From an uncultured Candidatus Saccharibacteria bacterium (GTDB lineage Bacteria; Patescibacteriota; Minisyncoccia; Phycocordibacterales; UBA9973): a stretch of DNA of 64,000 nucleotides. A program made the translations under genes and the position numbers. Location of the stretch: the NCBI GenBank assembly GCA_964426555.1, contig CAYRQJ010000004.1:19109-83108 (forward strand), written 5' to 3'. A model generated the notes under the pieces. The model was given only the letters and a program-made list of their open reading frames with translations, was not told the origin of the DNA and ran no database searches. Shown here one piece after another: positions 21,483-55,281 of the stretch (positions are counted from its first letter, which is position 1; every line of letters starts with the position of its first letter).

Positions 21483-21490
21483 AGGAGTAA

Positions 21491-31706: not shown

Positions 31707-33116
31707 TAACTTCATAACCATCATTGTGTTTGTTGACCCGGGTGTACCAAATGGAACACCAGCAGTTAGTATAATACTGTCCCCTTTTTTAACCATTTTA
31801 TTTTTTAATAAAATTTGAGAAATTCCAGAACTGGCGCTAGTTATACCTTTGTATGTTTCAGTAACTATAGGCATTACTCCATAAGAAAGCATAGTTTGAC
31901 GAGCTACTTCTACGTGTGTAGTAGCTGCAACAATAATTTGTACAGGTCTGTGTCTTGAAATAATTTTTGAAGTAAAACCAGATTCAGTCAACGCAATTAT
32001 TAATTTAGCTTTTACATCTTCAGCCACATGAACAAGAGCAGAAGAAAGACTGTCTACTAAATCACCTTGTTTAACTTGAATTCTTTTATGCGTTTTTATT
32101 TCTTCTTCTACACGCAAGGCAGTTTTAGACATTATTTGTACAGCTAGAGTTGGGTATTCGCCAACTGCAGTTTCTTCGCTAAGCATTAATGCATCAGTAC
32201 CATCATAAATTGCATTTGCAATATCTGAGACTTCAGCACGAGTAGGTACAGGTGTACGAACCATGCTTTCTAGCATTTGAGTAGCGGTAATTACTGGTTT
32301 ACCAACTGTGTTACATTTATTAATAATTTTCTTTTGAATATATGGAACATTCTCAGCCCCAACTTCAATAGCTAAATCACCCCGGGCAACCATAATAGCG
32401 TCAGAATTTTCAATAATATTATCAATATTTAAAACAGCTTCTGGGGTTTCAATTTTAGCAATAATTTTTGCTTTTGATTTATGTTTAATTAAATATTTTC
32501 TTAAATCATTTATGTCTTTACTGTTACGAATAAATGATAGTGCAAAATAATCTACTCCATTTTTTATACCAAATAAAACATCTTTTAAATCTTTAGCTGT
32601 TAGTGCACTAATAGACAAATTTGCATTTGGCATATTTACACCACGTCTAGATTTTATTTCTCCACCAACAACTATTTTGGTTTCGATTTCTTTTGAATTT
32701 AATATTTTTGTAACCACTAAACTTTTTTTACCATCATCAAGCATAATAACATTACCCACAGATAAATCTTTTGCAATTTGTGGGTAATTTATATAAACTA
32801 TTTTTTCGTTACCCAAAATTTTATTTGTAGTTAGTATAAATTTTTGACCTTTTACTAATGTTATTTTGTCATTTATAAATTCCCCTATTCTTATTTTAGG
32901 TCCACAAAGATCCATAATTACACCAAGATATACTTTGTTATTATGTTCAAATTCGTTTCGTAATTTAATTGTTTTTTCGTGAGTTGTGTAGTCACCATGG
33001 CTCATGTTTAGTCTTAAAAACGCAACACCATTTTGGTGAAATTTATTAAATAAATCTATCGATTGAGAAGCTGGACCGATGGTTGTAATAATTTTTGTTT
33101 TTTGAAAAGTTTTCAT
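31704..33116 (-). CDS. pyk: pyruvate kinase
   Basis: KTKIITTIGPAS N-terminus, barrel and C-terminal domains; 470 aa. Confidence 0.9.
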   Translation of the reverse strand: MKTFQKTKIITTIGPASQSIDLFNKFHQNGVAFLRLNMSHGDYTTHEKTIKLRNEFEHNNKVYLGVIMDLCGPKIRIGEFINDKITLVKGQKFILTTNKILGNEKIVYINYPQIAKDLSVGNVIMLDDGKKSLVVTKILNSKEIETKIVVGGEIKSRRGVNMPNANLSISALTAKDLKDVLFGIKNGVDYFALSFIRNSKDINDLRKYLIKHKSKAKIIAKIETPEAVLNIDNIIENSDAIMVARGDLAIEVGAENVPYIQKKIINKCNTVGKPVITATQMLESMVRTPVPTRAEVSDIANAIYDGTDALMLSEETAVGEYPTLAVQIMSKTALRVEEEIKTHKRIQVKQGDLVDSLSSALVHVAEDVKAKLIIALTESGFTSKIISRHRPVQIIVAATTHVEVARQTMLSYGVMPIVTETYKGITSASSGISQILLKNKMVKKGDSIILTAGVPFGTPGSTNTMMVMKL

Positions 33117-35194
33117 TAGATATCTAGATTTGCGTATTTGGCATTGGTTTGAATAAAAGATTTTCTTGGGGCAACTTCGCTACCCATTAACATATCAAAT
33201 ATATTGTCAGCTGCTTCAGCATCGTCTACTTGGACTTGCTTAAGAATTCTGCGAGCAGGGTCCATTGTTGTTTCCCATAGTTCTTCAGAATTCATTTCTC
33301 CGAGACCTTTATAACGTTGAATATGGAATTTTGTAGCGGCTTTTTTCTTTGTTTCTTCAGACTCTTCGCCTTCTAATTCTACTACTTCGTCACTATCTTC
33401 AGATTCTATAACTACAGCATCTGGAACTTTGCCAACAACAGCGTCTCGTTCTTCGTCTGAATATGCATACCAAACTTCTTTACCTTTTTTAATTTTGAAA
33501 AGTGGTGGTTGAGCAATGTAAATAAATCCCCCGTCAATTAGCGGACGGAAATATCTATAGAACAATGTCAGAATTAGTGTACGAATGTGTGCACCATCCA
33601 CGTCGGCATCGGTTGCTATGATTATTTTATGGTAGCGTAATTTTGAAATATCAAAAGTATCACCAATAGCACAACCCATTGCAACAACTAAATTTTTAAT
33701 TTGTTCACTGGCTAACATTTTATCCAGTCGTGCTCTTTCAATATTTAGAATCTTTCCACGCAGTGGCAAAATTGCTTGAGTACGACGGTCACGTCCCATT
33801 TTTGCAGTACCACCCGCAGAATCTCCCTCTACAATAAATATTTCAGATTCTTCAGCAGATTTTGTTTGACAGTCAGCAAGCTTACCTGGCAATGTCATGC
33901 CTTCTAATGCTCCTTTACGAAGCACAGAATCTTTTGCAGCTTTAGCGGCTTTACGTGCACGCATAGCCAGCAGTGATTTATTGATTATAGCTTTAGCTTC
34001 ATCAGGATTTTCTTCAAAGAAACTGTTTAATGCGTCACCAAATACAGTGTTAACTGCACCCTGAGCTTCAGTAGAACCCAATTTACCTTTGGTTTGGCCT
34101 TCAAATTGGATTTCTGGCATCTTGATAGACACCACCGCAACAAGACCTTCTAGTACGTCATCTCCTGTAAAACCACCGTCAGCTTCTTTTGCAAGACCAG
34201 CTTTTTTAGCATAGGAATTTATAATACGAGTTAAGGCAGTTTTGAAACCAGTAACATGAGTTCCGTATTCGGGGTTATTTATATTGTTAGCAAAAGCAAC
34301 AATTCTAGTAGACACATCATCAACATAACGAAATACTACTTCTACGGCTACATTATCAATTTCTCTTTCAATATGAAAAATAGAAGAATGAATTGGTTTT
34401 TGATATTCAGTATAATGCTCCACTAATGAACGCAATCCCCCTTCGAAATAATAAGTATGACTTGGTAATTCTAAATTTAAATCTTTAAACCAAAAGACAT
34501 CATCTATATTTGTTTTTTTGCCAGACAAAACATCAGCCCCCATTTCACGAGCGTCAATTGTAGTAATGCGTAAACCTTTTACAAGGTAAGCTTGCTGACG
34601 AAAATGATTTACAATAGTTGTTAAACTAAAATTTGTTGTTTCTTTAAAAATTTCTGCGTCAGGTTGAAAAGTAATAATTGTTCCGCGAAGTTTTGATTTT
34701 TCAACTTGTTTTACATTGGCTTTTTTAATACCTTTTGAATATTCTTGAACATATTTACCACCTTCACGATGTACTACTGCCTGAGTATATACAGACAATG
34801 CATTTACCACAGACGCACCCACACCGTGCAGACCTCCGGAAACTTTATATCCAGATTCATCTCCACCAAATTTACCACCAGCATGCAGTGTAGTCATTAC
34901 AGTTTCCAGTGCAGAAACTTTTGTTTTAGAATGAATTCCTACTGGAATACCACGACCATTGTCGGCAACACGAATACGGTTACCAGGTAGTAGTACTACT
35001 TCGATATTATTACATTCACCGGCCATGGCTTCGTCACGAGAGTTGTCAAAAATTTCCCATACAAGGTGGTGTAGACCTTCGGGGCCAGTAGAACCAATGT
35101 ACATTCCGGGACGGCGACGAACTGGTTCTAATCCTTCTAGAACTGAAATTTCATCAGCTCCATAGTTCTTTTTTGATGTGTTTTTTTCTGCCAT
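33116..35194 (-). CDS. gyrB: DNA gyrase subunit B
   Basis: GHKL ATPase GLHHLVWEIFDNSRDEAMAG, TOPRIM EGDSAGG, LILTLFYRY; stop overlaps pyk start by 1 nt. Confidence 0.95.
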   Translation of the reverse strand: MAEKNTSKKNYGADEISVLEGLEPVRRRPGMYIGSTGPEGLHHLVWEIFDNSRDEAMAGECNNIEVVLLPGNRIRVADNGRGIPVGIHSKTKVSALETVMTTLHAGGKFGGDESGYKVSGGLHGVGASVVNALSVYTQAVVHREGGKYVQEYSKGIKKANVKQVEKSKLRGTIITFQPDAEIFKETTNFSLTTIVNHFRQQAYLVKGLRITTIDAREMGADVLSGKKTNIDDVFWFKDLNLELPSHTYYFEGGLRSLVEHYTEYQKPIHSSIFHIEREIDNVAVEVVFRYVDDVSTRIVAFANNINNPEYGTHVTGFKTALTRIINSYAKKAGLAKEADGGFTGDDVLEGLVAVVSIKMPEIQFEGQTKGKLGSTEAQGAVNTVFGDALNSFFEENPDEAKAIINKSLLAMRARKAAKAAKDSVLRKGALEGMTLPGKLADCQTKSAEESEIFIVEGDSAGGTAKMGRDRRTQAILPLRGKILNIERARLDKMLASEQIKNLVVAMGCAIGDTFDISKLRYHKIIIATDADVDGAHIRTLILTLFYRYFRPLIDGGFIYIAQPPLFKIKKGKEVWYAYSDEERDAVVGKVPDAVVIESEDSDEVVELEGEESEETKKKAATKFHIQRYKGLGEMNSEELWETTMDPARRILKQVQVDDAEAADNIFDMLMGSEVAPRKSFIQTNAKYANLDI

Positions 35195-35344: not shown

Positions 35345-35375
35345 CTAAATAAAACCCTATTTTGCAAGGGTTTTA
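35345..35375 (-). terminator. rho-independent terminator after the 1310-aa fibre-like gene
   Basis: Minus strand AAACCCTTGCAAAATAGGGTTT hairpin followed by TATTTAGTTTTT. Confidence 0.65.
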
Positions 35376-35389
35376 TTGGTTAATTAGAC

Positions 35390-38300
35390 TTATATTACAG
35401 GCTCTGGGGCTGGTTCAGGATCTGGTGTTGGTGCTGGATCAGGGTCAGGTGTAGGAGCTGGATCGGGCGTTGGAGTTGAGTCTGGTGTTGGGTCTGGAGT
35501 AGGCGTTGGATCTGGTGTTGGAGATAGATCAGGTGTTGGATTTGATGCAGGAGATGGTGTTATTCCACTTTGATTTACCATTTGTAAGAATTGCTCTTCG
35601 TTAACACAGACACTGCCAACACACAATTCTTTTGTTTGAACTTTATCTGCATTTATTAATTTAGTAAAGATTACTTCTATATTATTCCCCACATCTGCCA
35701 AGAATATCTTTATCTTATTTGCTAAACTATTTTCTTTTGTTGTATCAAGTGAAGATAAATCTGTAACTTTTAAATTAAGTTCTTGAATAGCATTTAGTGC
35801 AATCATTTGTAATTCAAGATTATATGAAACTGCATAGTATCCATTTTTTTCTTTAACTAAATCAGGGAAAACTTGTGCCATTTCTTGAGCGATTAAACCA
35901 ACTTGTCTTCCTGATACATAACGTAGTGTTCCACCCAAGCTTTCTATGTCTTCATTCCATTCAAATGATACTGGGCGAAGTTGCATAACTTTTTCTAAAG
36001 ATCCAGTTAGTGAAGTAATATTATGTTTTAATCTTTCGTCAGATGTACATGTCCCAGCAACTTGAGCGCCGGCTTCTCGGAAACAGTCATCAGTATTAAT
36101 ATCGGCTACAACGTCTAGACCGTAGTCGGGAGTAGTATCTCCAATACCGACTTTACCATCACTAATAATTGTCATTCTATCAGTACCTGTTGTGGTTGTG
36201 GTATTAGCCGCAGTATAAAAAGTAATTGTGGTTACAGCGTTTGTAAGTGAACTACCACCACCAATACCAAAATTAGTTACGGCACTACTTGATGTGTAAT
36301 TAAACAATGCTACTGGCTCTTCGGCATTTGTATAATGAGGACCAACGATACGGGCATTTTTATCAGTAACGTTAGTTCTTGTATTTAAAGTATTGTCAGC
36401 ACCCAGCATCATAGTTATACCACCATTACTAATATCTAATGGATATGAAGGAGTTGCGGTAAGAATACCTAGACGATTATTTGTATCATCCCAGAAGAAG
36501 TTTGAATTGTCTTGAGAAATTAAACCGCCTGTCCCAGTAAAAGGAACTGAGCCTGATGTTAATGTAGAAAATGTAATATTCCCAGATGATGTTATGCCAG
36601 TAGCGGCTGCTATTGCACCACTGGAATTGACTTGAAATAAATCACCATCACCAACAGTAAACTTTGCTGCAGGAGACGCGTCCCCTATACCAATATTCCC
36701 AGTAGACAATGTTGTACCTGTACCATCTATTCCAGTACCAAATATTAAGTTACCAATAGTCATCGTATTTGTAGATGTAGCCGTTGGAGCATCAATGTCG
36801 TAGCCGATGACAATGTTATATGAACCAGTAGTAATATTATTACCAGCTTGGTAACCAAAAAGAGAGTTACCATCTGCACCAGTAGCAAATAATCTTGTGG
36901 TATTATGTCCAACCGCAGTATTTCCACTTACTGTTGTATCCGCAACTGTTGCAACCCATGCATGTCCACCTATAACCGTATTATATGAGCCGAGATAGTT
37001 AGCCGTAAGTGCGTAAGTACCCAATGCGATGTTATAAGTTCCAGTACTTGTATTATTCCCTGAAGAATAACCTAGGGATGCATTGTTAGTTCCAGTTGTA
37101 ACACCAGAAAGTGCATATTCCCCAACACCACTATTGTAGCTTCCGGTTGATAAATTAAACAACGATTGCTGACCAACAGCAGTATTGTCGCTTCCTGTAG
37201 TATTGTAATACATACTTGCTTTACCCAACGCAGTATTTGCTTTCCCTGTTGTATTTGCAGCCATAGTATCTGCACCAAATGCAACATTTGAATGACCTGT
37301 GGTTAATGCAGACATTGTATTTTTACCAACAGCACTATTATAGCTTCCTTCCCATACTAATGTAGCAGTTGAGCCTATGGTAAAGTTTCCGGAACTTTCT
37401 CCAACGAAAGTATTTCCCCCCGAAGTTGTCACTGCTCCATTATTCCCATAGTTAAAATCATGGATAAATCTATTTCCATCTTTATAAATAATTCCGTATT
37501 GTGCAGCAAAACTTGTTGCTGGCATTCGGAAGTTTTTTGTAATTTCAAGTTGTTCATTTGGTGTAGCTATACCTATACCAATGTTACCAGTAGACAACGT
37601 AGCATTGACCCCATCAATACCTGTTCCAAAAATAAGATTACCGATATTTAAAGTATTATCCTGAGTATAGTCTTGCGGTTCAATATCGTAGCCAATCATT
37701 ATGTTATGGTCTGCTGAAGACCAGCCAAGACCTGCGTTTTTACCAATAAATATATTGTTACTACCAGAGAAAGCCCCGCCTCCACCAGCAGATTGTCCTA
37801 AAATTGTATTGCCTGAACCAGAAGCATGAGAAGCAGCACTATCTCCAATACCTATATTGTCTGAACCGGTAGAATTACCAAGAGCGCCACTACCGATCGC
37901 AACACCGCTACCACCAGTGGCATCCTGAAGAGCTCCATATCCTATTGCAATAGCTCCGCTACCATCATAATTCTCTAATGCACCATGACCTATTGCGATA
38001 GAATAAGCTGCACCAGTTCCATTTTTTAACGCGTCAACACCTATTGCAACATTAGACTCACCATAATCATTGCTATATAAAGTACGATAACCAATAGCCA
38101 CATTATTATAACCCGAATCATTTACATTAAAAGCTTGATAACCAAAAATAGTATTTGTATTATCATTACTTGGTCCACGCCCAAGTCGTAAACCATTTAT
38201 TAATGCTTCTCCGTTTACATCTAATTTTGCTAATGGAGTCGCAGTACCAATACCAATACTTCCTGTTGAAACCGTTGTGCCTGTACCGTCGATTCCTGTA

Positions 38301-39322
38301 CCAAAAATAAGATTACCAATAGATAGTTGGTTATCACCACCAGCTGTTGGTAAATCAATATCGTAGCCAATAATAATATTATTGTCAGCACCAGTAGTTA
38401 AATTATTTGCGGCTTGGTAACCAATAAAAATATTATTTGCAAATACATCACCACCTTCATTTGCATTAGTACCAGCTCTGGCACCCAAAACAACATTATA
38501 TCCACCAGAAGTGTTACTATATAATCCTCTATTTCCAAAAATAGTATTATAACTACCGGTATTAAAAGGTGCAGAAGAACTACCAACCGCAGTATTGTAA
38601 CTACCGCTAATATTGTAAAGTAAAGACAAACTTCCAACACCAACATTGGCTTGTCCTGTTGTGTTGTTGTATAAAGCACCGTTACCAGCAACAGCTGTAT
38701 TATCTACTCCGGTTGTATTATTTTTTAAAGCGTTATATCCAATACCCGCATTTGAATATCCTGTGGTTACACTATTTAAAGCATTTTTACCAAATCCAGA
38801 ATTATAGCTTCCTTGCCAAGAACTAGTAGCCGTAGAACCCATTGTTAAATTACCAGCACTTTCACCAACAAAAGTACTTGACCCCTCAGTTGTCACTGTT
38901 CCATTGTTTCCATAAGTAAAATTATGAATGAACGTATTTGCCCCTTTGTAAATTATTCCGTATTGTGCAGCAAAACTTGTATCTGGTATTCGGAAGTTTT
39001 TTGTAATTTCTAATTGTTGATTTGGCGTATTCGTCCCTATACCTAATCTATTATTTGTATCATCCCAAAAGAAGTTTGTATTATCTTGTGTTAATGTAGA
39101 ACCATCAGAAAAAGCTATAGAGCCAGTTGTAAGAGTTGGTAGAATTGATACATAACAGTTAGCATCACCAGGTGCACAAGTAGGATCAAGCATAGCGTCA
39201 GATGGTATATATGGTAAACCAAAAGCTACTCCAGTACCAAAAATACTAAATATCACTGTGGCAATAATGAATTGTTTATTGTATTTAAGCCACTTTATCA
39301 TAACTATAATCTTGTCCCACAA
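35390..39322 (-). CDS. giant repetitive cell-surface fibre-like protein (1310 aa) with C-terminal intramolecular-chaperone (Peptidase_S74-like) domain and Pro/Thr-rich tail
   Basis: N-terminal signal-anchor identical to paralog; arrays of about 14-15 aa NTA[VI]G..[AS]L.[NS]N repeats (beta-helix/fibre-like); C-terminal TSDERLKHNI...LRPVSFEWNED...VGLIAQEMAQVFPDLV; ends TPTPDPTPD... Confidence 0.85.
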   Translation of the reverse strand: MWDKIIVMIKWLKYNKQFIIATVIFSIFGTGVAFGLPYIPSDAMLDPTCAPGDANCYVSILPTLTTGSIAFSDGSTLTQDNTNFFWDDTNNRLGIGTNTPNQQLEITKNFRIPDTSFAAQYGIIYKGANTFIHNFTYGNNGTVTTEGSSTFVGESAGNLTMGSTATSSWQGSYNSGFGKNALNSVTTGYSNAGIGYNALKNNTTGVDNTAVAGNGALYNNTTGQANVGVGSLSLLYNISGSYNTAVGSSSAPFNTGSYNTIFGNRGLYSNTSGGYNVVLGARAGTNANEGGDVFANNIFIGYQAANNLTTGADNNIIIGYDIDLPTAGGDNQLSIGNLIFGTGIDGTGTTVSTGSIGIGTATPLAKLDVNGEALINGLRLGRGPSNDNTNTIFGYQAFNVNDSGYNNVAIGYRTLYSNDYGESNVAIGVDALKNGTGAAYSIAIGHGALENYDGSGAIAIGYGALQDATGGSGVAIGSGALGNSTGSDNIGIGDSAASHASGSGNTILGQSAGGGGAFSGSNNIFIGKNAGLGWSSADHNIMIGYDIEPQDYTQDNTLNIGNLIFGTGIDGVNATLSTGNIGIGIATPNEQLEITKNFRMPATSFAAQYGIIYKDGNRFIHDFNYGNNGAVTTSGGNTFVGESSGNFTIGSTATLVWEGSYNSAVGKNTMSALTTGHSNVAFGADTMAANTTGKANTALGKASMYYNTTGSDNTAVGQQSLFNLSTGSYNSGVGEYALSGVTTGTNNASLGYSSGNNTSTGTYNIALGTYALTANYLGSYNTVIGGHAWVATVADTTVSGNTAVGHNTTRLFATGADGNSLFGYQAGNNITTGSYNIVIGYDIDAPTATSTNTMTIGNLIFGTGIDGTGTTLSTGNIGIGDASPAAKFTVGDGDLFQVNSSGAIAAATGITSSGNITFSTLTSGSVPFTGTGGLISQDNSNFFWDDTNNRLGILTATPSYPLDISNGGITMMLGADNTLNTRTNVTDKNARIVGPHYTNAEEPVALFNYTSSSAVTNFGIGGGSSLTNAVTTITFYTAANTTTTTGTDRMTIISDGKVGIGDTTPDYGLDVVADINTDDCFREAGAQVAGTCTSDERLKHNITSLTGSLEKVMQLRPVSFEWNEDIESLGGTLRYVSGRQVGLIAQEMAQVFPDLVKEKNGYYAVSYNLELQMIALNAIQELNLKVTDLSSLDTTKENSLANKIKIFLADVGNNIEVIFTKLINADKVQTKELCVGSVCVNEEQFLQMVNQSGITPSPASNPTPDLSPTPDPTPTPDPTPDSTPTPDPAPTPDPDPAPTPDPEPAPEPVI

Positions 39323-39412
39323 ATAAAGAGTAATCTTGATTTATGTTATGTATATTATACCAAAAAAATCGTTTAATCTTAAACGATTTTTGGGGTTAAA
39401 TGGGGATAAGTA
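39024..39412. repeat. about 390-bp direct repeat (copy B): 5' coding end plus promoter/terminator of fibre gene B, about 95% identical to 44916-45305
   Basis: Direct comparison of the two DNA stretches shows near-identity including the first about 290 coding nt and about 100 nt upstream. Confidence 0.85.
39340..39392 (-). promoter_or_regulatory. terminator hairpin (AAATCGTTTAAGATTAAACGATTT + U7) fused to extended -10 promoter (TGGTATAAT) for fibre gene B
   Basis: On minus strand: perfect 11-bp stem, 7 T, then TGgTATAAT with TTTAAG 18 nt upstream; gene start about 30-40 nt downstream. Confidence 0.6.
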
Positions 39413-39431
39413 ATGAGAGAAATTAGCTAAA

Positions 39432-42400
39432 TTATTCGGTTGTTGTTTCAGTATTAATTACTGGGTCTTCGTTAACTGTTTGGGTTGGTATTTCAGGAAT
39501 AGGTGGTGTTTCAACAGTTGAATTATCAGTATTTTCTTCAATATTTTGGTTCTCTTGTGTAGTATCTGTATTTGGTACTGGGTCAGGTGTTGGGGTTGGT
39601 TCAGGAGTTGAATCAGGAGTTGGTGTTACGTTTTGTGATTGTAATAGCTGTTGTAATTCTTGTTTTGTAATACAAACATCATCAATACAAAGTTTTTTAG
39701 TGTAAACTTCGTCAACAAAAATTGATTGAATTCCGTTCCCTACATCACTCAAGAATATTTTTATACGACTAGCTAAACTATTTTCTTTTGCGGGGTCAAG
39801 AGAATTTAAATCGGTAATTTTTAAATCTAAGTCTTGAATACTTTTAACAATTAATGGAGTTAGTTGAGAATAAGAAACTTTCCAATACTCATCTGGGTTA
39901 GACGGAATGATAACAGCATCAGGGTATGCATTGTACAATTCTTGAGCAACAAAACCATGAACACGAACATTTGGCTCTCGAATATATGAAAAATCTCTTA
40001 CCTTTATATCCATTAAGTTTCTTAGACTTAGACCAGTATCAACAATGTCTTGCTTTAGTCTTTGGTCAGAAGTTGTGGTTAATGTTAGTGTACCGGTTAC
40101 CAAAGACACAGTTCCAACATCACCACCGTCACCATCGTTAAACTGAATCCATTTACCAGCACTAGGAGTGTCTGCTCCGGCTTGATTGACTATACCAAAA
40201 CGGTAAAAATCATTACAATCGATTAAAAAATTTGAAGAATAATCAGCAGCATCCTCAAGAACAGTAAGCCTGTGTGTACCCAAAGTCACACTTCCGATTG
40301 TTGTTTTACCTAGGTTGGTCCAGTTCCCAGCGTCATCTAAATATGCAATAGATGATGAACTAGAATTAAGAGCATGTATGTTTTTTGTTGATGATGTTGC
40401 ACCTTGACCTTTAATCATTAATCTTGTGCTACCTATACCACCATTACTAGTATTACCAATAAAAGCATTACCATTAACATCAAAATCATTAACCGGAGAC
40501 ATTGATACACCAACTCTTCCACCAAAATATGCTGCATAATTATTAGTAGCTCCAGTAGGAACCTCAACATAAAGGCCGTACGCATTTGTTGCACTCGATA
40601 CAGAACTACCTTGTTGAATATACAACCCAATTGAATTTGTTATACTTGCATTTGTACTTTTAATAGGGGCGCCAGCAATAGCCATTGTTGCAGCATTAGT
40701 TATAGTACTTGCCCCCACAAATGAATATGTTGGTTGAGTTATTAATACTTCTCTTTGGGTTGCTATTGCACCTGTTGCCCATTGTCTACCCGCAGTAGTT
40801 AAAGTTAGTGATGGAATCTCAGTTGAGGCTGTTTGATTTGTATTAACAGCACCAGTGTACACAATACCTTTTAATGCACCAGTACTAGTAATAGTCTGAG
40901 CAACCTCAAGTTTGCCAGTGGGTGCAGCTATGCCTATACCAATATTTCCTGTTGATACAGTTGTGCCAGTTCCATCTATTCCAGTACCAAAGATAAGGTT
41001 ACCAATGGATAATTGGCTATCAGTTGTTGCGGATGGTGCATCGATATTATAACCAATTACAATATTTTTAGAACCGGTAGTTAATGCATCACCAGCTTGC
41101 CAACCTAATAAAATATTATAATCACCACTTGTCGCAGCAAGTCCTGAACCATAGCCAATAGATGTATTACCAGTACCCGATGTTGAAGTAAACAAGGCTT
41201 TATAACCAATCCCAATTGATTGATCTGCTGTAGTATTGGTTAATGATTGACTACCAAATACTTGATTACCAATACCCACATTGTCAGTACCGATCGTTTC
41301 AACTGCTGCATGATACCCTAAATAGACGTTATCAGAACTAGTTGTAATTGCTGCACCTGCTAAATATTCACTGGCCATAGCTTCTTGCCCAATTACAACA
41401 TTTCGAAAACCAACAAGTGAATATCCTGCGGCTGAACCCATCAACACATTTCCTCCACTGGTACCACTGGTTGTAATATTGAACCCAGAAGATTCTCCAA
41501 TAGAGATGTTATTACTACTTGTTGAAATATTTCTAAGTGCATCTTTATTTATAGCTACGTTAGAATAACCAGAACTAAGTGGTTGCGCAGCAGCAGCTCC
41601 AATTGCAACATTAAACTGTCCACTAGACAGATTTAACATTGTATTGTCACCAATAGAAATATTTCTATCTCCAGTTGCTGAAGAGTTAAGAGAATTACCA
41701 ATACCGATATTTGAATATGGAGTTACTCCTGTAGATGCAGTTCTGTGAATATACCAGTCACCTGCAACGCTACGAATTCCTGTATCCATAGTTGCTGTTG
41801 TAAATCTTAGTTCAGCGGTAGAAGAAGAGAGTGTGACAGATGCACCAGTTGTACTAACAGCTCCAGTTGAAGTAACTTGGAATTGTGATGTTGATCCAAC
41901 AGAAAACATATTTGTTGGGCTTGTATTCCCACCAATATTTACAAGCCCGCCAGTAGATATTCGCATTCTTTCAACACCAAGTGCTCCATTGTTTGTTCCA
42001 AAAACAATATTTCCACTATAAGTATTAATAACAAAATTAGTTACAGCTCCGCCTATTTGAAAACCAGCTTGACCTGTAGCACCTAAAGACATCTCATTAT
42101 AACCACCACTGGAACCATTTATAAAAAATTTTGCATAGTTTGAACCACTACCACCATTTGCATTGTATAAAGTTAAATCTGGAGTCCCAGTGGTTGATGT
42201 GTTTTCAATTAATATTTTTGTTTGTGTAGCATCGGCGTCTTTAATTAACAAAGCTTCTCCTGGAGCAGTAGCTCCAGTACCTATACCTACACGACCAGTA
42301 TCACGAAAAGTAACAAAAGCAGTACCGTTATCTTTAATTAAGAAATCCCCAGTTGAAGTTAAATCAACAAACGAATCAGTAGAAGTACCAGCAGTTAATG

Positions 42401-45215
42401 AATATATTCCAGATGATGTTATACCAGTCGCAGCTGCTATTGCACCAGATGAATTGACTTGAAATAAATCACCATCACCAACTGTAAACTTTGCTGCAGG
42501 ACTTGCATCACCGATACCCACATTCCCAGTTGAAAGTGTAGTCCCTGTGCCATCTATTCCTGTACCAAAGATTAAGTTACCAATAGACATTTGACCATCT
42601 GTCGTATTGCTTGGTGCGTCAATGTCATAACCAATGACAATATTCTTGTCACCAGTTGTTATTGCATTACCAGCAGCATAACCAATAGCGATGTTGTTTG
42701 CAGCGTCCCCCATACTTTGACCAGCACCAAAACCTATCAAAGTGTTGCCATCAGCAGCTAAATTTAGGCCAGCAATAGTACCAATTATTGTTGAATAATT
42801 AATTGCAGCGGTTGTTTGTCTTGCTGCACCATATCCAATAACTACATTGTCAGCACCAGCTCCATCACGAAGAACGGCTGAACCAATGGCTACGTTTTCA
42901 TTACCCGAACTTGTAAACATTGCTCTGTAACCCATAACTATGTTATCACTATCTCCAGCTAATCCTGATCCGGCTTCATAACCAATAGCAATGTTATCAC
43001 TACCTGTTGTAGAAATACCATTCATGGCACTTGTACCAATAGCAATGTTTTGCGATGCTGTTGTTAATGCATTTAAAGACGATACACCAATACCAATGTT
43101 ATTAGCTCCTTCGGTTACAAGTCTTAAACCACTAATACCCACATTATTACCACCACTTGTTGTGTCTTGTCCTGAATATTGACCAACACCACCTGCGCGA
43201 CCGGCAAAGAAATTGTTTGAGCCTGTTGTTACAGCACTAAATGTTCCCTGGTTTAAAACAGTATTAAGTAATGTTGTATCAAAACGAAGAGCAAATACTC
43301 CACCTATTTTATATCCATTAGTTAATACTCCAGTACTTGATGTGTTAAAGAAACCCGTAGCGCTACTAATCACAGCAGAAGCCCCTGAGCCTGACAATGT
43401 TAGTGCCGCACCAGTTGAATCTAATGTTTTTGCTCCGGCAAAAGTTTGTGTACCTGTTGTAACAACACCACCAAATGAAGCGGAAGCTGGTTCAAGATTT
43501 AAAGTAACCCCAGAAATAGTAGCGCCATTTGAATTTGCTGATGAACCAATAACCCCAATAGTTGTAACACCACCAGATGCTGCTGCCCATGTTAATGTTC
43601 CTGATCCATTATTTGTTAAAACATAACCACTGGCTCCAGCCTGAGATCCGGGCCATGTATAAGTAACATTATTTATTTTTACGATATTCCCAGATGAATC
43701 AACTTGGAATAGGTCTCCATTACCTACGGTTAATAATGAGGCAGGAGTAGTATCCCCAATACCTAAATTACCGGAATTAATTACTCGAATTTTTTCAGTT
43801 AAAGAACCACTAGTTGTTGTTGAGAAAGAAATATATCCAGTATTATTTACTCGGTTTTGGAAATAAAATTGCCCAGCATTAGAAGCTGCAGATTGACTGA
43901 ATCCTCCAACACGATAATTCACAGTTCCTGGCCATGCTCCTTCTCGTAAATCAAGTAATGTTTGATTTGTCCCTGCAACATCTTGCATTACAAATTGAGC
44001 TGCACCACTTGTTGCCCCTGCACGAATAGTCACATCTCCACTGGCTGTCATAACGTCTAATCTTACATTAGGTGATGCAATACCTATACCGATATTTCCA
44101 CTGGAAACTGATGTCCCTGTTCCATCAATACTTGTACCAAAGATTAAGTTACCAATAGATAATTGATTATCACCACTGGCAGTTGGTAAATCAATATCGT
44201 AGCCGATAATAATATTATTACCCGCACCTGATGTTGCATTATTAGCAGCTTGATATCCAATAAAAATATTATTGTCTAAATTACCAGTCCCACCAGTATT
44301 ATAACCAGAATCATATCCCAAGGAAACATTATTACTACCACCAGTATTTGAACGTAATGCATTTAACCCCATTCCAATATTGTAATTACCAGTTGAATTA
44401 TTGTATAAAACATTTCCCCCTATACCAGTATTATATAAACCAGTATTGTTATACAAAGCATTTGTACCGACGGCAGTATTATACCCAGTTGTACTATTTG
44501 AATACAGAGCATTGACCCCAACTGCAGTATTTCCACTACTAGTAGTATTATTTCTTAAGGCATATACACCAAACGCAGCATTAGATACTCCACTACTATT
44601 ATTTTCTAAAGACTGTTTACCAACAGCTGTATTGTCTACACCACCAATATTTGAATATAACGTCCTGTATCCAACAGCAGTACTACCATTCCCTGTATTT
44701 GTATAAAGAGCAGTATATCCAATTGCAGTATTTTGAAGAGCAGAAACTGAACTATATAAAGTCTGATAACCCACGGCAGTATTTTGACTACCATTAGTAT
44801 TTGAATTTAAAGTTTGATAACCCACTGCGGTATTTGTAGCAACACTACCAGCACCAAGACCAACACGAATATTATTTAATAAAACATCAGATCCAGAAAC
44901 TTCAAGTTTATAAGTAGGCGTATTCGTTCCTATCCCTAATCTATCATTTGTATCATCCCAAAAGAAATTTGTATTATCTTGTGTTAATGTAGAACCATCA
45001 GAAAAAGCTATAGACCCGGTAGTAAGCGTTGGTAGAATTGACACATAACAGTTAGCATCACCTGGTGCACATGTAGGATCAAGCATAGCGTCAGATGGTA
45101 TATATGGTAAACCAAAAGCTACTCCAGTACCAAAAATACTAAAGATCACTGTGGCAATAATGAATTGTTTATTGTATCTAAGCCACTTTATCATAACTAT
45201 AATCTTGTCCCACAA
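39432..45215 (-). CDS. giant repetitive cell-surface fibre-like protein (1927 aa), paralog of 35390..39322
   Basis: N-terminal 95 aa identical to paralog except 2 residues; long NTA[VI]G/NN[IV][SA][IL]G repeat arrays; shared 40-aa block NIGIGDASPAAKFTVGDGDLFQVNSSGAIAAATGITSSG; C-terminal TTSDQRLKQDIV...VRDFSYI...HGFVAQELYNAYPDAV chaperone domain; PT/E-rich tail. Confidence 0.85.
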   Translation of the reverse strand: MWDKIIVMIKWLRYNKQFIIATVIFSIFGTGVAFGLPYIPSDAMLDPTCAPGDANCYVSILPTLTTGSIAFSDGSTLTQDNTNFFWDDTNDRLGIGTNTPTYKLEVSGSDVLLNNIRVGLGAGSVATNTAVGYQTLNSNTNGSQNTAVGYQTLYSSVSALQNTAIGYTALYTNTGNGSTAVGYRTLYSNIGGVDNTAVGKQSLENNSSGVSNAAFGVYALRNNTTSSGNTAVGVNALYSNSTTGYNTAVGTNALYNNTGLYNTGIGGNVLYNNSTGNYNIGMGLNALRSNTGGSNNVSLGYDSGYNTGGTGNLDNNIFIGYQAANNATSGAGNNIIIGYDIDLPTASGDNQLSIGNLIFGTSIDGTGTSVSSGNIGIGIASPNVRLDVMTASGDVTIRAGATSGAAQFVMQDVAGTNQTLLDLREGAWPGTVNYRVGGFSQSAASNAGQFYFQNRVNNTGYISFSTTTSGSLTEKIRVINSGNLGIGDTTPASLLTVGNGDLFQVDSSGNIVKINNVTYTWPGSQAGASGYVLTNNGSGTLTWAAASGGVTTIGVIGSSANSNGATISGVTLNLEPASASFGGVVTTGTQTFAGAKTLDSTGAALTLSGSGASAVISSATGFFNTSSTGVLTNGYKIGGVFALRFDTTLLNTVLNQGTFSAVTTGSNNFFAGRAGGVGQYSGQDTTSGGNNVGISGLRLVTEGANNIGIGVSSLNALTTASQNIAIGTSAMNGISTTGSDNIAIGYEAGSGLAGDSDNIVMGYRAMFTSSGNENVAIGSAVLRDGAGADNVVIGYGAARQTTAAINYSTIIGTIAGLNLAADGNTLIGFGAGQSMGDAANNIAIGYAAGNAITTGDKNIVIGYDIDAPSNTTDGQMSIGNLIFGTGIDGTGTTLSTGNVGIGDASPAAKFTVGDGDLFQVNSSGAIAAATGITSSGIYSLTAGTSTDSFVDLTSTGDFLIKDNGTAFVTFRDTGRVGIGTGATAPGEALLIKDADATQTKILIENTSTTGTPDLTLYNANGGSGSNYAKFFINGSSGGYNEMSLGATGQAGFQIGGAVTNFVINTYSGNIVFGTNNGALGVERMRISTGGLVNIGGNTSPTNMFSVGSTSQFQVTSTGAVSTTGASVTLSSSTAELRFTTATMDTGIRSVAGDWYIHRTASTGVTPYSNIGIGNSLNSSATGDRNISIGDNTMLNLSSGQFNVAIGAAAAQPLSSGYSNVAINKDALRNISTSSNNISIGESSGFNITTSGTSGGNVLMGSAAGYSLVGFRNVVIGQEAMASEYLAGAAITTSSDNVYLGYHAAVETIGTDNVGIGNQVFGSQSLTNTTADQSIGIGYKALFTSTSGTGNTSIGYGSGLAATSGDYNILLGWQAGDALTTGSKNIVIGYNIDAPSATTDSQLSIGNLIFGTGIDGTGTTVSTGNIGIGIAAPTGKLEVAQTITSTGALKGIVYTGAVNTNQTASTEIPSLTLTTAGRQWATGAIATQREVLITQPTYSFVGASTITNAATMAIAGAPIKSTNASITNSIGLYIQQGSSVSSATNAYGLYVEVPTGATNNYAAYFGGRVGVSMSPVNDFDVNGNAFIGNTSNGGIGSTRLMIKGQGATSSTKNIHALNSSSSSIAYLDDAGNWTNLGKTTIGSVTLGTHRLTVLEDAADYSSNFLIDCNDFYRFGIVNQAGADTPSAGKWIQFNDGDGGDVGTVSLVTGTLTLTTTSDQRLKQDIVDTGLSLRNLMDIKVRDFSYIREPNVRVHGFVAQELYNAYPDAVIIPSNPDEYWKVSYSQLTPLIVKSIQDLDLKITDLNSLDPAKENSLASRIKIFLSDVGNGIQSIFVDEVYTKKLCIDDVCITKQELQQLLQSQNVTPTPDSTPEPTPTPDPVPNTDTTQENQNIEENTDNSTVETPPIPEIPTQTVNEDPVINTETTTE

Positions 45216-45305
45216 ATTAAGAATAATCTTGATTTATGTTATGTATATTATACCAAAAAAATCGTTTAAGATTAAACGATTTTTGGGTAAATGTGGGGAT
45301 AAATA
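44916..45305. repeat. about 390-bp direct repeat (copy A), partner of 39024-39412
   Basis: See partner; includes 5' coding end of gene A and its upstream terminator/promoter module. Confidence 0.85.
45233..45285 (-). promoter_or_regulatory. terminator hairpin (pheT) fused to extended -10 promoter for fibre gene A
   Basis: Same AAATCGTTTAAGATTAAACGATTT hairpin + T-run + TGGTATAAT as at 39340-39392. Confidence 0.6.
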
Positions 45306-45326: not shown

Positions 45327-47228
45327 TTATCTTATTTCAAGCCCGGAAATTTGCTTTAAATTAGCTTCTATTTTTTGCATAACTTCAGCTATTTCTGTGT
45401 CGGTTAAAGTCCTGTCTTTTGCTTGAAAAACCATTCGGAATGCGTAAGAATTTTTACCATCTTTACTAAATTTATCAAACAAGTTTGGGCCTACTACAAC
45501 AAGTTCATTGATACTATTTTTTATATTTTCTAAAACTACATCATCTGTTATATCAACTGGCACCCATACTGAAATGTCGCGAGTTATAAATGGGTATTGG
45601 GACCAAGGAGTAAAGGTTCTAGTTTCTAGCTTATAGTTGCTAGTTGAAGCGGAATCAGTGAATGGAATATTACTCACAACCTCGCCTGCTCTATCTGTTA
45701 AATTTTTAGTAAGAATAGATGCAAAATCTATTAAATTAGATTCTTGCACTTCGCTTTTATTCGCATATGCAACATGTATTTCTTCAGTATCATTTATAAA
45801 TACAGTTCCAATTTCAAAGATTTTTATTTCATTTTGGTTCAACAATGGTGCATTATTTTTGTTTAACTCGTAAGACGTCCTTAACCCATCGGTTAAATTG
45901 GTTCGTAGAAAATCTTTACCTTTGGCACCACGAGCTATTTGAATATCCCCTTTTTTACAAAAAGAATATGTCATAACTTCGTTATAACCATTTGATATTA
46001 AATCATTTCTAATGCTTTCTATTTTATTGTATTGTTCATTTTCTTTTGCAGTAAAAATATTTTTTATATCAGGCATTATTGGGACTAATTTGTCGTAACC
46101 ATAAATACGTCCAATTTCTTCTACCATATCTATTTCACTTTCTAAATCAAGACGAAAAACAGGTGCTGTTACTTTAAATGTACCAGCATTAAAAACATAT
46201 TCATATTTATAATTTTTTAAAATATTTTCTATATCAACATCTGTAATACTGCTACCCAATTTTTTATTTACCAAATTTGATGTGAAAGAAATTATTCTTT
46301 CAACTTGGGCTACTGGATACACATCTACAACTTCTTCTAAGACTGCATCGGGACACATCTCGCAAATCAATGCCGATAATTCAAGCATTCCAAAATCACA
46401 TAATTCTGGGGTTAAATTATTTTCAAATCTTTTTGCAGCATCAGATAGTACTCCTATTCTACGAGCGGTTTTACGAATACAAATTGGGTCAAAATTCCCT
46501 ACTTCTAAAACAATGTCCACGGTATCATCCTGGATTCCTGAATTTACTCCACCCTTTATGCCACCCAGTGCTAATGTCTCACCACCAGAATTAGTGATTA
46601 CTAAATCAGTTTCTTTTAGTTTTGCAACTATGGCGTCGCGCCCAACTAAAGTTAGCTCTTCATCCACCCCTGCATTTGTAATAACAATTTTTTGATCAGA
46701 AAATTTACGTAAATCAAAAGCATGTGTTGGTTGCCCGCAATTTAGCATTACTAAATTTGTAGCGTCTACAATGTTATTAATACTGCGTTGTCCTGCATTT
46801 TCCAAATGTTTTACTACCCAATCAGGTGATGGCCCAACTTTAATATTGCGCACTATTCTAGCAGAATATCTACGACAAGAATTTGTTTGAATATCAATTT
46901 GTAAATTAGTTTTTTGTATTTCTTTCTTTGCTAAAATTTTGTCATAGCCATCTTTTGTTTCAACAAAGTTTAAACCAAGTTGACCAGAAATTTCCAAAGC
47001 TACACCTTTGTGAGAAAGTAAATCATGCGCACGATTAGGTAAAATGTTTACATCCAATATCCAATCTGAAATCTCGTTAGAGGCAGGATCTGTTTCAATA
47101 GATCCGTCGGCTCTAATCGGGACTAATCCTTCTACTTCCGTAAGATGGTACGTTAAAACATCGTGCAGTTTTTCTGCATCTGGAGCATCGGGTATATACC
47201 ATTTTAACCAGTTATAAGATATTTTCAT
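45327..47228 (-). CDS. pheT: phenylalanyl-tRNA synthetase beta subunit (short, 633 aa)
   Basis: MKISYNWLKWYIP N-terminus, B3/4 and B5 regions; lacks N-terminal tRNA-binding domain present in the 795-aa E. coli protein. Confidence 0.9.
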   Translation of the reverse strand: MKISYNWLKWYIPDAPDAEKLHDVLTYHLTEVEGLVPIRADGSIETDPASNEISDWILDVNILPNRAHDLLSHKGVALEISGQLGLNFVETKDGYDKILAKKEIQKTNLQIDIQTNSCRRYSARIVRNIKVGPSPDWVVKHLENAGQRSINNIVDATNLVMLNCGQPTHAFDLRKFSDQKIVITNAGVDEELTLVGRDAIVAKLKETDLVITNSGGETLALGGIKGGVNSGIQDDTVDIVLEVGNFDPICIRKTARRIGVLSDAAKRFENNLTPELCDFGMLELSALICEMCPDAVLEEVVDVYPVAQVERIISFTSNLVNKKLGSSITDVDIENILKNYKYEYVFNAGTFKVTAPVFRLDLESEIDMVEEIGRIYGYDKLVPIMPDIKNIFTAKENEQYNKIESIRNDLISNGYNEVMTYSFCKKGDIQIARGAKGKDFLRTNLTDGLRTSYELNKNNAPLLNQNEIKIFEIGTVFINDTEEIHVAYANKSEVQESNLIDFASILTKNLTDRAGEVVSNIPFTDSASTSNYKLETRTFTPWSQYPFITRDISVWVPVDITDDVVLENIKNSINELVVVGPNLFDKFSKDGKNSYAFRMVFQAKDRTLTDTEIAEVMQKIEANLKQISGLEIR

Positions 47229-53109: not shown

Positions 53110-53700
53110 TTATATTTTTACTAATTCTGTAAAAATTACTAACCTGTCTGAAGATGATTTTTTAATATTATTCCACAAACCACTACAAGTAATTAGATTT
53201 AAATATGCACCATTAGATTTCGGCACAAATACATCGGTATAATCTTCACCTGGGGTGTAAATTTTAATTTTAATTACATTAAACACAAGAATATTCCCCA
53301 AACTGTCTTCTATATAAATTTTGTCGTCAACACGCAATTTATATAAATTATCAAATACGGCAGGTAAATTCCCTTTCCATCCAGAATGTCCATCGATTAT
53401 GGCTACCCCATTTTCTCCTGGTCGCGGACCTAAATTATACCAACCTACATTTTTGGGTCCAGAAGGAGCATCAACTGCACCATCTTTTGTTAATCCAACA
53501 TGTTCAACTTTTGATACCACCCCAATAATTGGGATTTTTAAATTTACAGGATTTAATTTGCTATTATTTTTAATAACAATATTTTGTAAATTTACAAAAA
53601 GTAAGATTTTTCTTTCTTTTGCTTTTACTATAATAAATAAAAAAACAAAAATTACTAAAAGAAATCCCAATAGTATATTTTTATTTTTAAAATTTAACAT
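53110..53700 (-). CDS. sortase-family transpeptidase
   Basis: N-terminal TM anchor; catalytic His in AIIDGHSG, active-site LNLITCSG (TLxTC motif). Confidence 0.8.
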   Translation of the reverse strand: MLNFKNKNILLGFLLVIFVFLFIIVKAKERKILLFVNLQNIVIKNNSKLNPVNLKIPIIGVVSKVEHVGLTKDGAVDAPSGPKNVGWYNLGPRPGENGVAIIDGHSGWKGNLPAVFDNLYKLRVDDKIYIEDSLGNILVFNVIKIKIYTPGEDYTDVFVPKSNGAYLNLITCSGLWNNIKKSSSDRLVIFTELVKI

Positions 53701-53717
53701 TAATTTTTAAAACAACA

Positions 53718-55010
53718 TTATTTATTGTTTACTGCTTTGCGATGAAAATATATAAACAAAGATGCCCCAATTATTCCTAAAAATATAATTGCGTAACTTA
53801 TATAATTTTTTGACTGAGTTGGGTAACCTGTATTTGGCATGGCTGGCACAAAGACTGTATTTACCGGAGGATTAGAAATTGCAGTAATTACTGGGTTACT
53901 AATCACAACAGGTAAAGTATTATTTTCAAGTAATCTTGCAGCGTCACTCATTGCTTGAAGAATATAAACTGGGATAGACCCACCAGACTGAACAACTGGT
54001 ATTATATAAGTATTTATTATTGTACAAATTTTTTCAGCGCCTGTAGCAAATGTTATAGATCCGGCAGAATCACAATCTCCAGAAAAAGTTTTTGTATAAC
54101 TATTATTTACATCTTCACTAACTTCGTAAGTACCTCCAGATAATGAATACAGTGTTCCAGGTGAGATTACTCCAACAGCTGGACTACCAGACACATTTAC
54201 TCCACCTGTTTTTACATATAAATTAAAATCAGAAGAAGCAAGTAGTCCACCTCCGGTATTAACCACAGTTTTGATTATATGAAAACTGGCATTAGTACAA
54301 GTTGGAACAGTAACGGTACTAGTATCTCCAGTTGTTATTACTCCTGCCCCAATAGAAAGTAGTCTTCCTGTTACAGTTGTATTTGCTCCAATAGTAATTG
54401 CATTTGCATTATCAACTATTGTTCCAGAAAATGTAGTAGTTGCTGCTAATGTTGTAGCTGCAGTTGGTGTCCAGAACACATCACAAGCAGATGGTCCAGT
54501 TAAAGTTACAGTAGTACCAACAGTAGAAGTTAAAGCCCCTACTGGTCTAAAAATATAAGTACCGCTACCACTAAGAGTAATTGGGCTTCCAATATTCATT
54601 GCACCACTACTACAATATACTCCGGGGTTATACACCCCAATTGTCCCATGAGTGGCGTCTGTACCTAAATCAATTGCACCTGGTGCAAAAGTAAAAGTAC
54701 AAGCATTAGCGGCTAAAGACCCTAATAAAGTTGATGTGTCTGTTTGTGCAGTCGGTGTTGGTGCACCTGCTCCATAAATTGTGCCACTGACTATTGGTGG
54801 TGTTACTGGGCCAGTTGTATAGCCTACGTCACCATTAATAGTAGTTGCGGCTGATGTGTTGGTATATGTACCAGCAAGTACCCCGTAACTGGCTGATAAG
54901 CCAAGAGATGGAGTTGTTGCACCAAAACTAATGTTTGGAGAAATTATTCCCAAGACTAAAAATGCTGCTGCTAATACAGTTAGCGCTGGTTCCTTCTTAA
55001 ATTTTCTCAT
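53718..55010 (-). CDS. Thr/Gly-rich secreted surface protein with C-terminal sortase-type sorting signal (MPNTG + hydrophobic segment + HRK tail)
   Basis: Signal peptide MRKFKKEPALTVLAAAFLVLGII; C-terminus ...VPAMPNTGYPTQSKNY-ISYAIIFLGIIGASLFIYF-HRKAVNNK; immediately upstream of sortase gene. Confidence 0.75.
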   Translation of the reverse strand: MRKFKKEPALTVLAAAFLVLGIISPNISFGATTPSLGLSASYGVLAGTYTNTSAATTINGDVGYTTGPVTPPIVSGTIYGAGAPTPTAQTDTSTLLGSLAANACTFTFAPGAIDLGTDATHGTIGVYNPGVYCSSGAMNIGSPITLSGSGTYIFRPVGALTSTVGTTVTLTGPSACDVFWTPTAATTLAATTTFSGTIVDNANAITIGANTTVTGRLLSIGAGVITTGDTSTVTVPTCTNASFHIIKTVVNTGGGLLASSDFNLYVKTGGVNVSGSPAVGVISPGTLYSLSGGTYEVSEDVNNSYTKTFSGDCDSAGSITFATGAEKICTIINTYIIPVVQSGGSIPVYILQAMSDAARLLENNTLPVVISNPVITAISNPPVNTVFVPAMPNTGYPTQSKNYISYAIIFLGIIGASLFIYFHRKAVNNK

Positions 55011-55272: not shown

Positions 55273-55281
55273 CAAATAAAT

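Follow-up and report, generated by a model that had tools for sequence, protein, structure and literature searches.

A 5′ module probably kept alike by gene conversion in tandem fibre-like genes of a Saccharibacteria-type chromosome

The MAT (mosaic adhesive trimer) fibres of Bdellovibrio bacteriovorus are phage-like trimeric fibres that are encoded on the chromosome and displayed at the cell surface (PMC10769870). They consist of a signal peptide, an invariant N-terminal domain and variable tips, and 13 of 21 carry a self-cutting S74 chaperone, for whose catalytic dyad the motif SDxxxK has been defined; the authors also proposed "tip swapping" (PMC10769870). Here, we describe 2 tandem genes of similar layout, designated gene A (39432..45194, minus strand, 1,920 amino acids (aa)) and gene B (35390..39301, minus strand, 1,303 aa), in a 64-kb stretch of DNA from an uncultured Candidatus Saccharibacteria bacterium (hereafter the window). 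The 2 genes lie on the minus strand in the order pheT–A–B–gyrB, and each starts with one copy of a ~390-bp direct repeat, which we call the module.

Concerted evolution of tandem or dispersed paralogues by gene conversion is known in bacteria, with tuf, rRNA operons, Neisseria opa, Mycobacterium PE/PPE and Wolbachia wsp as examples. Sequence comparison makes it probable that gene conversion keeps the module alike and that the module is a recombination anchor for mosaic fibre genes that are tandem paralogues in a Saccharibacteria-type chromosome. The ~390-bp repeat is the common front end of both genes, in which the upstream terminator, the promoter and the 5′ untranslated region (5′UTR) precede the export signal and the N-terminal part nearest the cell. 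This front end would be homogenised by occasional exchange of RecA type, either gene conversion or crossing-over, in which the partners are the 2 paralogues or a paralogue and incoming DNA of related strains, and purifying selection on export or anchoring would hold its protein sequence fixed; the homology would double as an arm for the deletion, duplication and exchange of fibre bodies. As such, the repeat is nothing unusual: paralogues that undergo gene conversion commonly show a footprint of this kind.

The 2 copies of the module (39024..39412 at gene B and 44917..45305 at gene A, both minus strand) form an ungapped alignment at an offset of 5,893 nucleotides (nt), in which 366 of 389 positions are identical (94.1%) and 23 differ; blastn gave 94.4% over 393 columns. 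These values agree with the ~95% given in a preliminary description of this DNA, in which the second copy (44916–45305) was placed with the correct end and a start one base off. The edges are sharp, and the in-register identity is ~35% beyond 39020 and beyond 39415. Each copy contains a hairpin, an extended −10 element, the 5′UTR and the first 93 codons, which encode the signal peptide, a Cys loop and the first joint motif; that is to say, the module corresponds approximately to the whole intergenic unit plus the gene start, and its 3′ edge lies directly after the first joint motif. The coding part, previously given as about 290 nt, spans 278 nt from the ATG (39301 in gene B and 45194 in gene A) or 299 nt from an alternative upstream TTG start (39322 and 45215). 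Over the first 100 codons counted from the TTG, A and B differ at 13 positions, of which 11 are synonymous. Since each repeat is the 5′ end of one of the 2 genes, they bracket the gene A body, and the earlier observation that they flank it is correct for a pair of tandem fibre-like genes. The longest perfect A/B tracts within the module are 71, 47 and 33 nt; perfect tracts of these lengths suffice for RecA-dependent homologous exchange. Beyond the module, exact A/B matches reach at most 32, 23 and 20 nt and the larger internal repeat families are 62–88% alike, so that the "additional identical internal blocks" mentioned before were overstated.

The divergence between A and B changes abruptly at the module edge. 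Within the module, the synonymous divergence (dS) is 0.216 and the nonsynonymous divergence (dN) 0.009, compared with dS 1.09 and dN 0.52 in the next 281 aligned codons and dS 1.17 in the C-terminal 279 aligned codons; the 111 nt of non-coding DNA upstream of the ATG contain only 10 differences. At the protein level, the modules of window A and B are 98% identical, and those of within-genome pairs 97–98%, compared with 38–75% between genomes and 45–75% for orthologous modules in congeners. Each member of the pair in congener L110 is as far from window A as from window B, and the modules do not pair by position. Thus, the tract is closer within a genome than between genomes, at silent sites too, and has discrete edges, which are the hallmarks of concerted evolution.

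Independent cases of within-genome homogenisation were found in L003 and L110/L108, where both the sequences and the tract edges differ from those of the window. L003 is a more distant Saccharibacteria metagenome-assembled genome (MAG) with tandem S74 genes, which share ~190 nt with 1 mismatch in a tract that starts inside the coding region, whereas the related L080 is ~75% identical there. Assignment of the L003 pair to the pheT–gyrB locus was ruled out by its Pfam flanks (a CarboxypepD_reg protein and rpsG/fusA); the pair lies at another locus and still counts as an independent case of 5′-module homogenisation. In GCA_034680565.1, the 2 members of a tandem pair that lies upstream of gyrB are 91.6% identical over 190 nt, a tract that takes in their hairpin, extended −10 and 5′UTR, and a dispersed third paralogue matches one member of the pair over 354 nt at the 5′ end (92.4%) and over 422 nt in the S74 region (93.6%). 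Either an old duplication was later homogenised or a recent duplication was followed by replacement of the body, and either course requires recombination that ended at the module edge. The idea that the repeats are a recombination substrate, put forward in the preliminary description, thereby gains comparative backing from the five-fold lower dS in the module, the conserved adjoining non-coding DNA and the recurrence elsewhere.

The pheT–gyrB fibre locus is plastic among relatives. One fibre gene occupies it in congener L109 and in the more distant L101/L102, and 2 occupy it in the window and in congeners L002 and L110, with lengths ranging from 629 to 1,920 aa. Outside the module, the window fibres have no segment of at least 60% aa identity over at least 50 residues in common with the congener fibres, while GyrB of these congeners is 89% (L109), 88% (L110) and 86% (L002) identical to that of the window. 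The strain L001 (GCA_020049755.1) belongs to the same species as the window, and its GyrB is 100% identical (tblastn). At the nucleotide level, L001 is 95–100% identical to the window from gyrB through the 3′ two-thirds of gene B and 98% identical over the first 120 nt of the module, compared with 47–66% across the ~1.6 kb between. In this alignment, the 5′ half of gene B is replaced in L001, with one breakpoint inside the module. In L112, whose housekeeping flank is ~91% identical to that of the window, a stretch of 854 nt in the gyrB-proximal gene matches window gene A (44083–44936) at 86% identity. Together, the L001 and L112 alleles indicate that fibre bodies have been exchanged between alleles and positions, with the module as one of the crossover sites. 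Of the deletions, duplications and chimeric fibres envisaged earlier, the copy number of 1 or 2 across congeners and the mosaic bodies are in agreement; the variant alleles seen are no simple A/B chimeras.

Two further observations concern the fibre genes of congeners. In L002 (29–6240), the C-terminal chaperone types are swapped relative to position when compared with the window: the C-terminus of window gene A is 65% identical to that of the L002 gyrB-proximal (B-like) gene, and that of gene B reaches only ~41% identity to either L002 C-terminus. In L109 (10001–14062), the single fibre gene (P0013, 1159 aa) stops inside the S74 domain and is followed by a 163-aa open reading frame (ORF) with a Pro/Thr-rich tail; the gene looks frameshifted or split, possibly as a pseudogene or through a sequencing error.

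Several points weigh against gene conversion as the explanation or limit its reach. The module dS of 0.22 is comparable to the split between the window and L001 (dS 0.11 for gyrB and 0.21 for pyk) and far below the divergence from L112 (0.36–0.45), and thus homogenisation would be occasional and infrequent. Part of the likeness is clearly constraint, as the dN of 0.009 and the family-wide conservation of the leader and Cys loop reflect strong purifying selection. The variant alleles of L001 and L112 are not simple A/B chimeras; an A/B chimera was rejected for L001, where the replaced segment is just 65–73% like gene A. No recA was seen within the 64-kb window, in which an AddA-like helicase-nuclease gene (Pfam) lies 3.6 kb from the fibre module. 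Finally, the evidence for exchange comes from the comparison of assembled genomes, and L001, L112, L080 and L110 are short-read MAG or metagenome assemblies, whose end junctions are possibly affected by assembly. The contigs of L001 (1–125), L080 (1–200) and L112 (1–170) begin inside the coding part of the module and the L110 contig begins 52 nt upstream of its fibre gene, as would be expected of a repeat on which short-read assemblies break. In MAG catalogues, fibre genes of this kind are probably often cut short or missing.

Four other explanations of the repeats can be weighed against exchange between paralogues. If A and B were old duplicates without exchange, the likeness of their front ends would reflect constraint on the promoter, UTR, signal peptide and N-terminus alone. 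The low dN of the module and the predominance of synonymous changes (11 of 13) agree with this, as do the leader and Cys-loop motif conserved across the family and the hairpin, −10 and UTR architecture kept in congeners. Against it stand a dS that is five times lower in the module (0.22) than downstream (~1.1) and the abrupt tract edges. Congener modules, which are presumably equally constrained, have only 45–75% aa identity compared with 97–98% within genomes, the L003 tract has 1 mismatch in ~190 nt where its relative is at ~75%, and module pairs are closer at synonymous sites within genomes than orthologues between genomes as a trend in 3 genomes. We therefore regard selection without exchange as unlikely. 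At the opposite extreme, the repeats could be a switch for programmed, high-frequency variation that deletes or amplifies gene A or swaps bodies, with phase or host-range variation as the outcome. Direct repeats with perfect tracts of up to 71 nt do bracket the gene A body, copy number does vary among congeners, and the short-read contigs of relatives that end in or beside the module would fit repeats and heterogeneity alike. By contrast, the 23 differences between the copies (dS 0.22) speak against frequent exchange, A and B are both complete and are served by separate promoters, and the two-gene arrangement is retained in 3 congeneric genomes. The Pfam-scanned ORFs of the window contain no phage, integrase, invertase, recombinase (site-specific or other) or reverse-transcriptase domains; no silent promoterless cassettes were found, nor any fibre fragments in the window outside 35390–45215. 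Models based on a diversity-generating retroelement, an invertase or silent cassettes were rejected, as their components are absent from the scanned window ORFs, and programmed variation is as improbable in our judgement as constraint alone.

Both a phage origin and an assembly artefact are much less probable still. Tail-fibre genes of a prophage or its remnant, with the repeats as boundaries of a tail-fibre cassette, would account for the matches to PHROG tail spike, fibre and virion protein families (1e-38 to 1e-53), for an S74 chaperone typical of phage fibres and for the name "tail fiber domain-containing protein" that NCBI gives to relatives. A phage framing does not agree with the housekeeping surroundings: pheT and gyrB flank the pair, the 64 kb contain no phage genes, and fibre genes occupy the same chromosomal site in at least 5 related genomes. 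In addition, IMG/VR viral contigs contain no relative of the N-terminal module, both proteins have a signal peptide of the Sec type, for which a virion fibre has no use, and homologous chromosomal fibres are known in Bdellovibrio, so that a phage origin is hardly credible. As to mis-assembly, repeat-rich fibre genes are difficult to assemble, and contigs of relatives end in or beside the module, which might cast doubt on the second module copy or on the tandem layout. Yet the copies differ at 23 positions, their longest shared exact tract (71 nt) is shorter than an ordinary read, and the unique sequences that border one copy on either side are not those that border the other. The ORF of gene A (1920 aa) is intact, includes a separate S74 domain and encodes a protein identical to an NCBI entry on an 83-kb contig, and independent genomes share the tandem design; an artefact is thus very improbable, and gene conversion between tandem paralogues is retained as the preferred explanation of the module.

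The proteins encoded by genes A and B include a Sec-type leader, a segment with 2 cysteines, joint motifs in a long repetitive shaft, and a C-terminal Peptidase_S74 domain. The leader of both proteins reads MIKWLKYNKQ-FIIATVIFSIFGTGVAFG-LP, with a charged n-region, a hydrophobic core and an AxG/AxA-like end; the signal peptide was called by eye on the translations, and the leader pattern recurs in about 40 family members. It is followed by the short two-Cys segment (DPTCAPGDANCYV) and the first joint motif (GSIAFSDGSTLTQDNTNFFWDDTNNRLGIGTNTP). The joint motif is found anywhere along fibre-like proteins of other bacteria and is thus a general joint rather than an N-terminal feature. The shaft (1,000–1,600 residues) is built around VGIG..P...L joint motifs and accounts for the PHROG matches, which range from 1e-48 to 1e-52 for gene B. 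A third copy of the joint motif (..QDNSNFFWDDTNNRLGI..) lies inside gene B (36449..36571, minus strand; 63% aa identity to module residues 54–93 by tblastn; family D11). Gene B also contains an internal duplication of ~1.46–1.56 kb within 36654–39043, in which the copies of family D6 (37362–37579 and 38826–39043) are 80% identical and those of family D1 are 1563 nt apart. The same-species strain L001 has one duplication unit only, which indicates that the length of the gene B shaft changes by recombination between internal repeats.

The Peptidase_S74 domain (Pfam PF13884, cut-off 22 bits) is located at 35852..36043 in gene B (minus strand, 59.3 bits, 4.4e-16, motif TSDERLK) and at 39912..40070 in gene A (minus strand, 35.5 bits, 1.2e-8, motif TSDQRLK), so that the SDxxxK motif of the Ser-Lys dyad is present in both translations, and a Pro/Thr-rich tail follows the domain in both proteins. 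In characterised members of the S74 family, the domain drives trimer folding and then cleaves itself. By family membership, A and B would be long, secreted, phage-tail-fibre-like surface fibres that trimerise and undergo self-cleavage. Among solved structures, the best sequence match of the C-terminal region is a weak one to the MYRF ICA domain (7dc3, E = 0.011), and 3 motif-level alignments were obtained to Bdellovibrio Bd2133 (8ond), with a whole-sequence E of only 0.18. A full-length search of the Protein Data Bank returned a low-complexity Pro/Thr-rich match only, and a useful NCBIfam family was obtained neither for genes A and B nor for 2 neighbouring proteins.

At E ≤ 1e-30, gene B has matches in more than 1,000 database proteins, many of them from Patescibacteria; where a name is given, it is "tail fiber domain-containing protein" or "trimeric autotransporter adhesin". 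By contrast, the part formed by the leader and the Cys loop is rare, with only 41 cluster representatives among 1.84 billion at E ≤ 0.001; nearly all of these matches are N-terminal, mostly in proteins of several hundred to 4,116 aa. As a single query, the N-module found no relatives in metagenome contigs or IMG/VR, whereas a four-sequence alignment of it found 28 distant loci. Few of the 28 have 2 modules in one locus, and the pairs concerned (L082 and L100) are only moderately alike. A DsbA-like thioredoxin-fold protein is encoded at 2325–3251 of the window; an extracytoplasmic disulfide oxidoreductase of this kind would fit the conserved Cys-x6-Cys loop at the N-terminus of the mature fibre.

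The non-coding part of the module contains a closely packed set of regulatory elements. An AT-rich palindromic hairpin followed by a T-run lies at 39364..39391 (minus strand; RNA fold −13.6 kcal/mol, z = −5.0 versus shuffles), and its second copy lies downstream of pheT at 45257..45284 (minus strand; −13.8 kcal/mol, z = −4.3). The AT-rich stem has 12 bp, is followed by seven T's and is located ~40 nt past the upstream stop codon, which is that of pheT for copy 2 and that of gene A for copy 1. From its sequence, the hairpin at 39364..39391 is likely the intrinsic terminator of gene A; it overlaps the −35 position of the gene B promoter. A terminator scanner did not report the module hairpin because its stem holds only 2 G-C pairs. 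The extended −10 element TGGTATAAT of gene B (39354..39362, minus strand) directly follows the hairpin and was found in a promoter scan as TTAAGA-17-TATAAT with a TG, and that of gene A (45247..45255, minus strand) was read from the sequence. The preliminary description had placed the hairpin and the extended −10 in both copies, and indeed the window contains exactly 2 matches to the 24-nt hairpin pattern, where 0 are expected from 100 shuffles, and TGGTATAAT is present at both sites. The sole difference between the 2 hairpins is the central loop dinucleotide, which on the plus strand is TC (39377–39378) or GA (45270–45271) and changes the putative −35 hexamer from TTAAGA (gene B) to TTAATC (gene A). 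The 2 dinucleotides are exact reverse complements, that is, one hairpin is the precise inversion of the other, which fits a single template-switch or loop-flip rather than 2 independent substitutions.

The 5′UTR of the module is ~45 nt long and contains a predicted stem-loop (39318..39345, minus strand, with its counterpart at 45211–45238; ViennaRNA fold). Stem-loops of different sequence occur at the same position in congeners L109 (~9960–9990) and L110 (~3070–3090), a weak correspondence from few sequences, and the folding model suggests that the element, as a conserved 5′ hairpin, could stabilise or regulate the mRNA. L109 and L110 retain the whole layout of hairpin, T-run, TG-n-TATAAT and UTR stem-loop with different stem sequences, which argues that the hairpin, the −10 and the UTR stem-loop are functional. 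Rfam contained no family that matched within the module. A further terminator-like hairpin follows gene B (35348..35377, minus strand; terminator scan and RNA folding).

The surrounding 64 kb are a bacterial chromosome with a G+C content of 34%. Housekeeping genes identified by Pfam include rpoB, rpoC, sigma-70, dnaG, RNase R, SMC, thrS, pyk, gyrB, pheS and pheT, and secD/secF, ftsW, folD, ribosomal protein S16 and trmD are also encoded. The fibre locus has conserved flanks on both sides. The left flank is pheT (45327..47228, minus strand; Pfam B3_4, B5 and FDX-ACB), with synteny in L040, L076, L099, L101/L102 and L109, and the right flank is gyrB (33116..35194, minus strand; Pfam), with synteny in L001, L002, L101/L102, L109, L110 and L112. 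The nearest genomes with matching gene order include MAGs titled Candidatus Saccharibacteria. The gene A protein is identical to database protein P0011, which is the NCBI record on the 83-kb contig. Exact-protein look-ups of pheT, gene A, gene B and P0011 returned no records, and only that of gyrB gave other contigs.

Elsewhere in the window, a 5S rRNA (63651–63757) and the 3′ end of a 23S rRNA (63885–64000) lie at the window edge, and a tRNA-Ser(GGA) lies at 55186–55273. A sortase gene (53110–53700) is directly downstream of the gene for a 430-aa protein with an Ice-binding-like domain (53718–55010), and the 2 genes are probably a cassette of a sortase and its surface-protein substrate. A 1071-aa ORF without a Pfam or NCBIfam family (within 18267–21874) adjoins a DUF5663 protein (21491–21874) in surroundings that are otherwise housekeeping.

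Little is settled about the means by which the ultrasmall Patescibacteria recognise their host bacteria and stay attached to them. The literature that we found on host attachment points to type IV pili and a few adhesins, and S74 fibres are absent from the list given in a transposon sequencing (Tn-seq) study of Southlakia, which names type IV pili, a type IV secretion system and several glycan-binding adhesins. Full-text literature searches returned nothing that links S74 or tail-fibre-like proteins, or a locus of this kind, with Saccharibacteria or Patescibacteria; NCBI annotation already labels such proteins "tail fiber domain-containing". By likeness to the Bdellovibrio MAT fibres and to phage receptor-binding fibres, the fibres are probably adhesins for the host cell of the epibiont. 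If so, the locus, which has a fixed chromosomal address, fast-evolving bodies (<60% identical where GyrB is 86–89%), a variable copy number and a leader homogenised by recombination, is a concrete candidate for the determination of host range.

More tentatively, and with considerable doubt on our part, the pheT–gyrB fibre locus might be a host-recognition (host-range) determinant that works as an exchange cassette of this epibiotic Saccharibacteria clade. The design would suit such a cassette, with a constant promoter-leader at the 5′ side, a semi-constant S74 module at the 3′ side and conserved housekeeping flanks, and natural transformation together with homologous recombination could swap, duplicate or delete fibre bodies between strains. 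This would be a cellular counterpart of phage tail-fibre swapping, by which an obligate epibiont could change hosts. The antigenic or host-range variation that the preliminary description suggested is hypothetical. Recombination that keeps a leader module alike is an ordinary kind of gene-family evolution, which here acts in little-studied candidate host-attachment genes. More interesting than the repeat is the presence of a MAT-like fibre family at a fixed, fast-evolving site in an epibiotic bacterium of the Candidate Phyla Radiation (CPR).

Compared with known systems, the locus combines features of several. The MYRF ICA domain belongs to the same S74 fold family but is part of a eukaryotic membrane transcription factor, and its relevance is to support the call of a chaperone or self-cleavage domain. 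Phage fibres and tailspikes such as the K1F endosialidase and T5 pb1 share the C-terminal S74 chaperone, match the shaft through PHROG families and are likewise modular, with a conserved N-terminal attachment part, a variable distal part and exchange at conserved joints. By contrast, the window fibres come without virion or baseplate genes, have a Sec signal peptide and a fixed housekeeping locus, and their N-terminus presumably attaches to the cell envelope instead of a baseplate. With families under concerted evolution, the locus shares paralogue segments that are closer than orthologues, sharp tract edges and a lowered dS in the tract; it differs in that the tract is a regulatory and leader cassette while the antigen-like body diverges, with no archive of silent cassettes found. 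The closest likeness is to the MAT fibres in the following respects: (i) both are chromosomal, non-phage genes in a bacterium that lives on other bacteria; (ii) both proceed from a signal peptide through a family-constant N-terminus and a repetitive fibre to a C-terminal S74 domain with SDxxxK; (iii) both occur as several paralogues with differing bodies or tips; and (iv) the motif ..RM.I...G.VGIG..P...L.V of the window fibres aligns, at the level of the motif, to the sequence of the Bd2133 structure. The window fibres, whose surface location and binding are predicted, belong to a monoderm-like Patescibacterium, whereas the MAT host is a Gram-negative predator. Their constant N-terminal part extends ~25–65 residues past the signal peptide, of which ~25 residues, including the Cys-x6-Cys loop (DPxCxPGDxxC), separate the leader from the first joint motif, compared with the ~130-aa beta-rich domain that directly follows the signal peptide in MAT; no sequence likeness between the two was seen in a comparison based on Bdellovibrionales loci, which match the joint motif only (residues 52–93). 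Lastly, the constant part in the window reaches beyond the protein into promoter and terminator DNA, which would be kept alike by conversion, a feature that the MAT paper does not describe.

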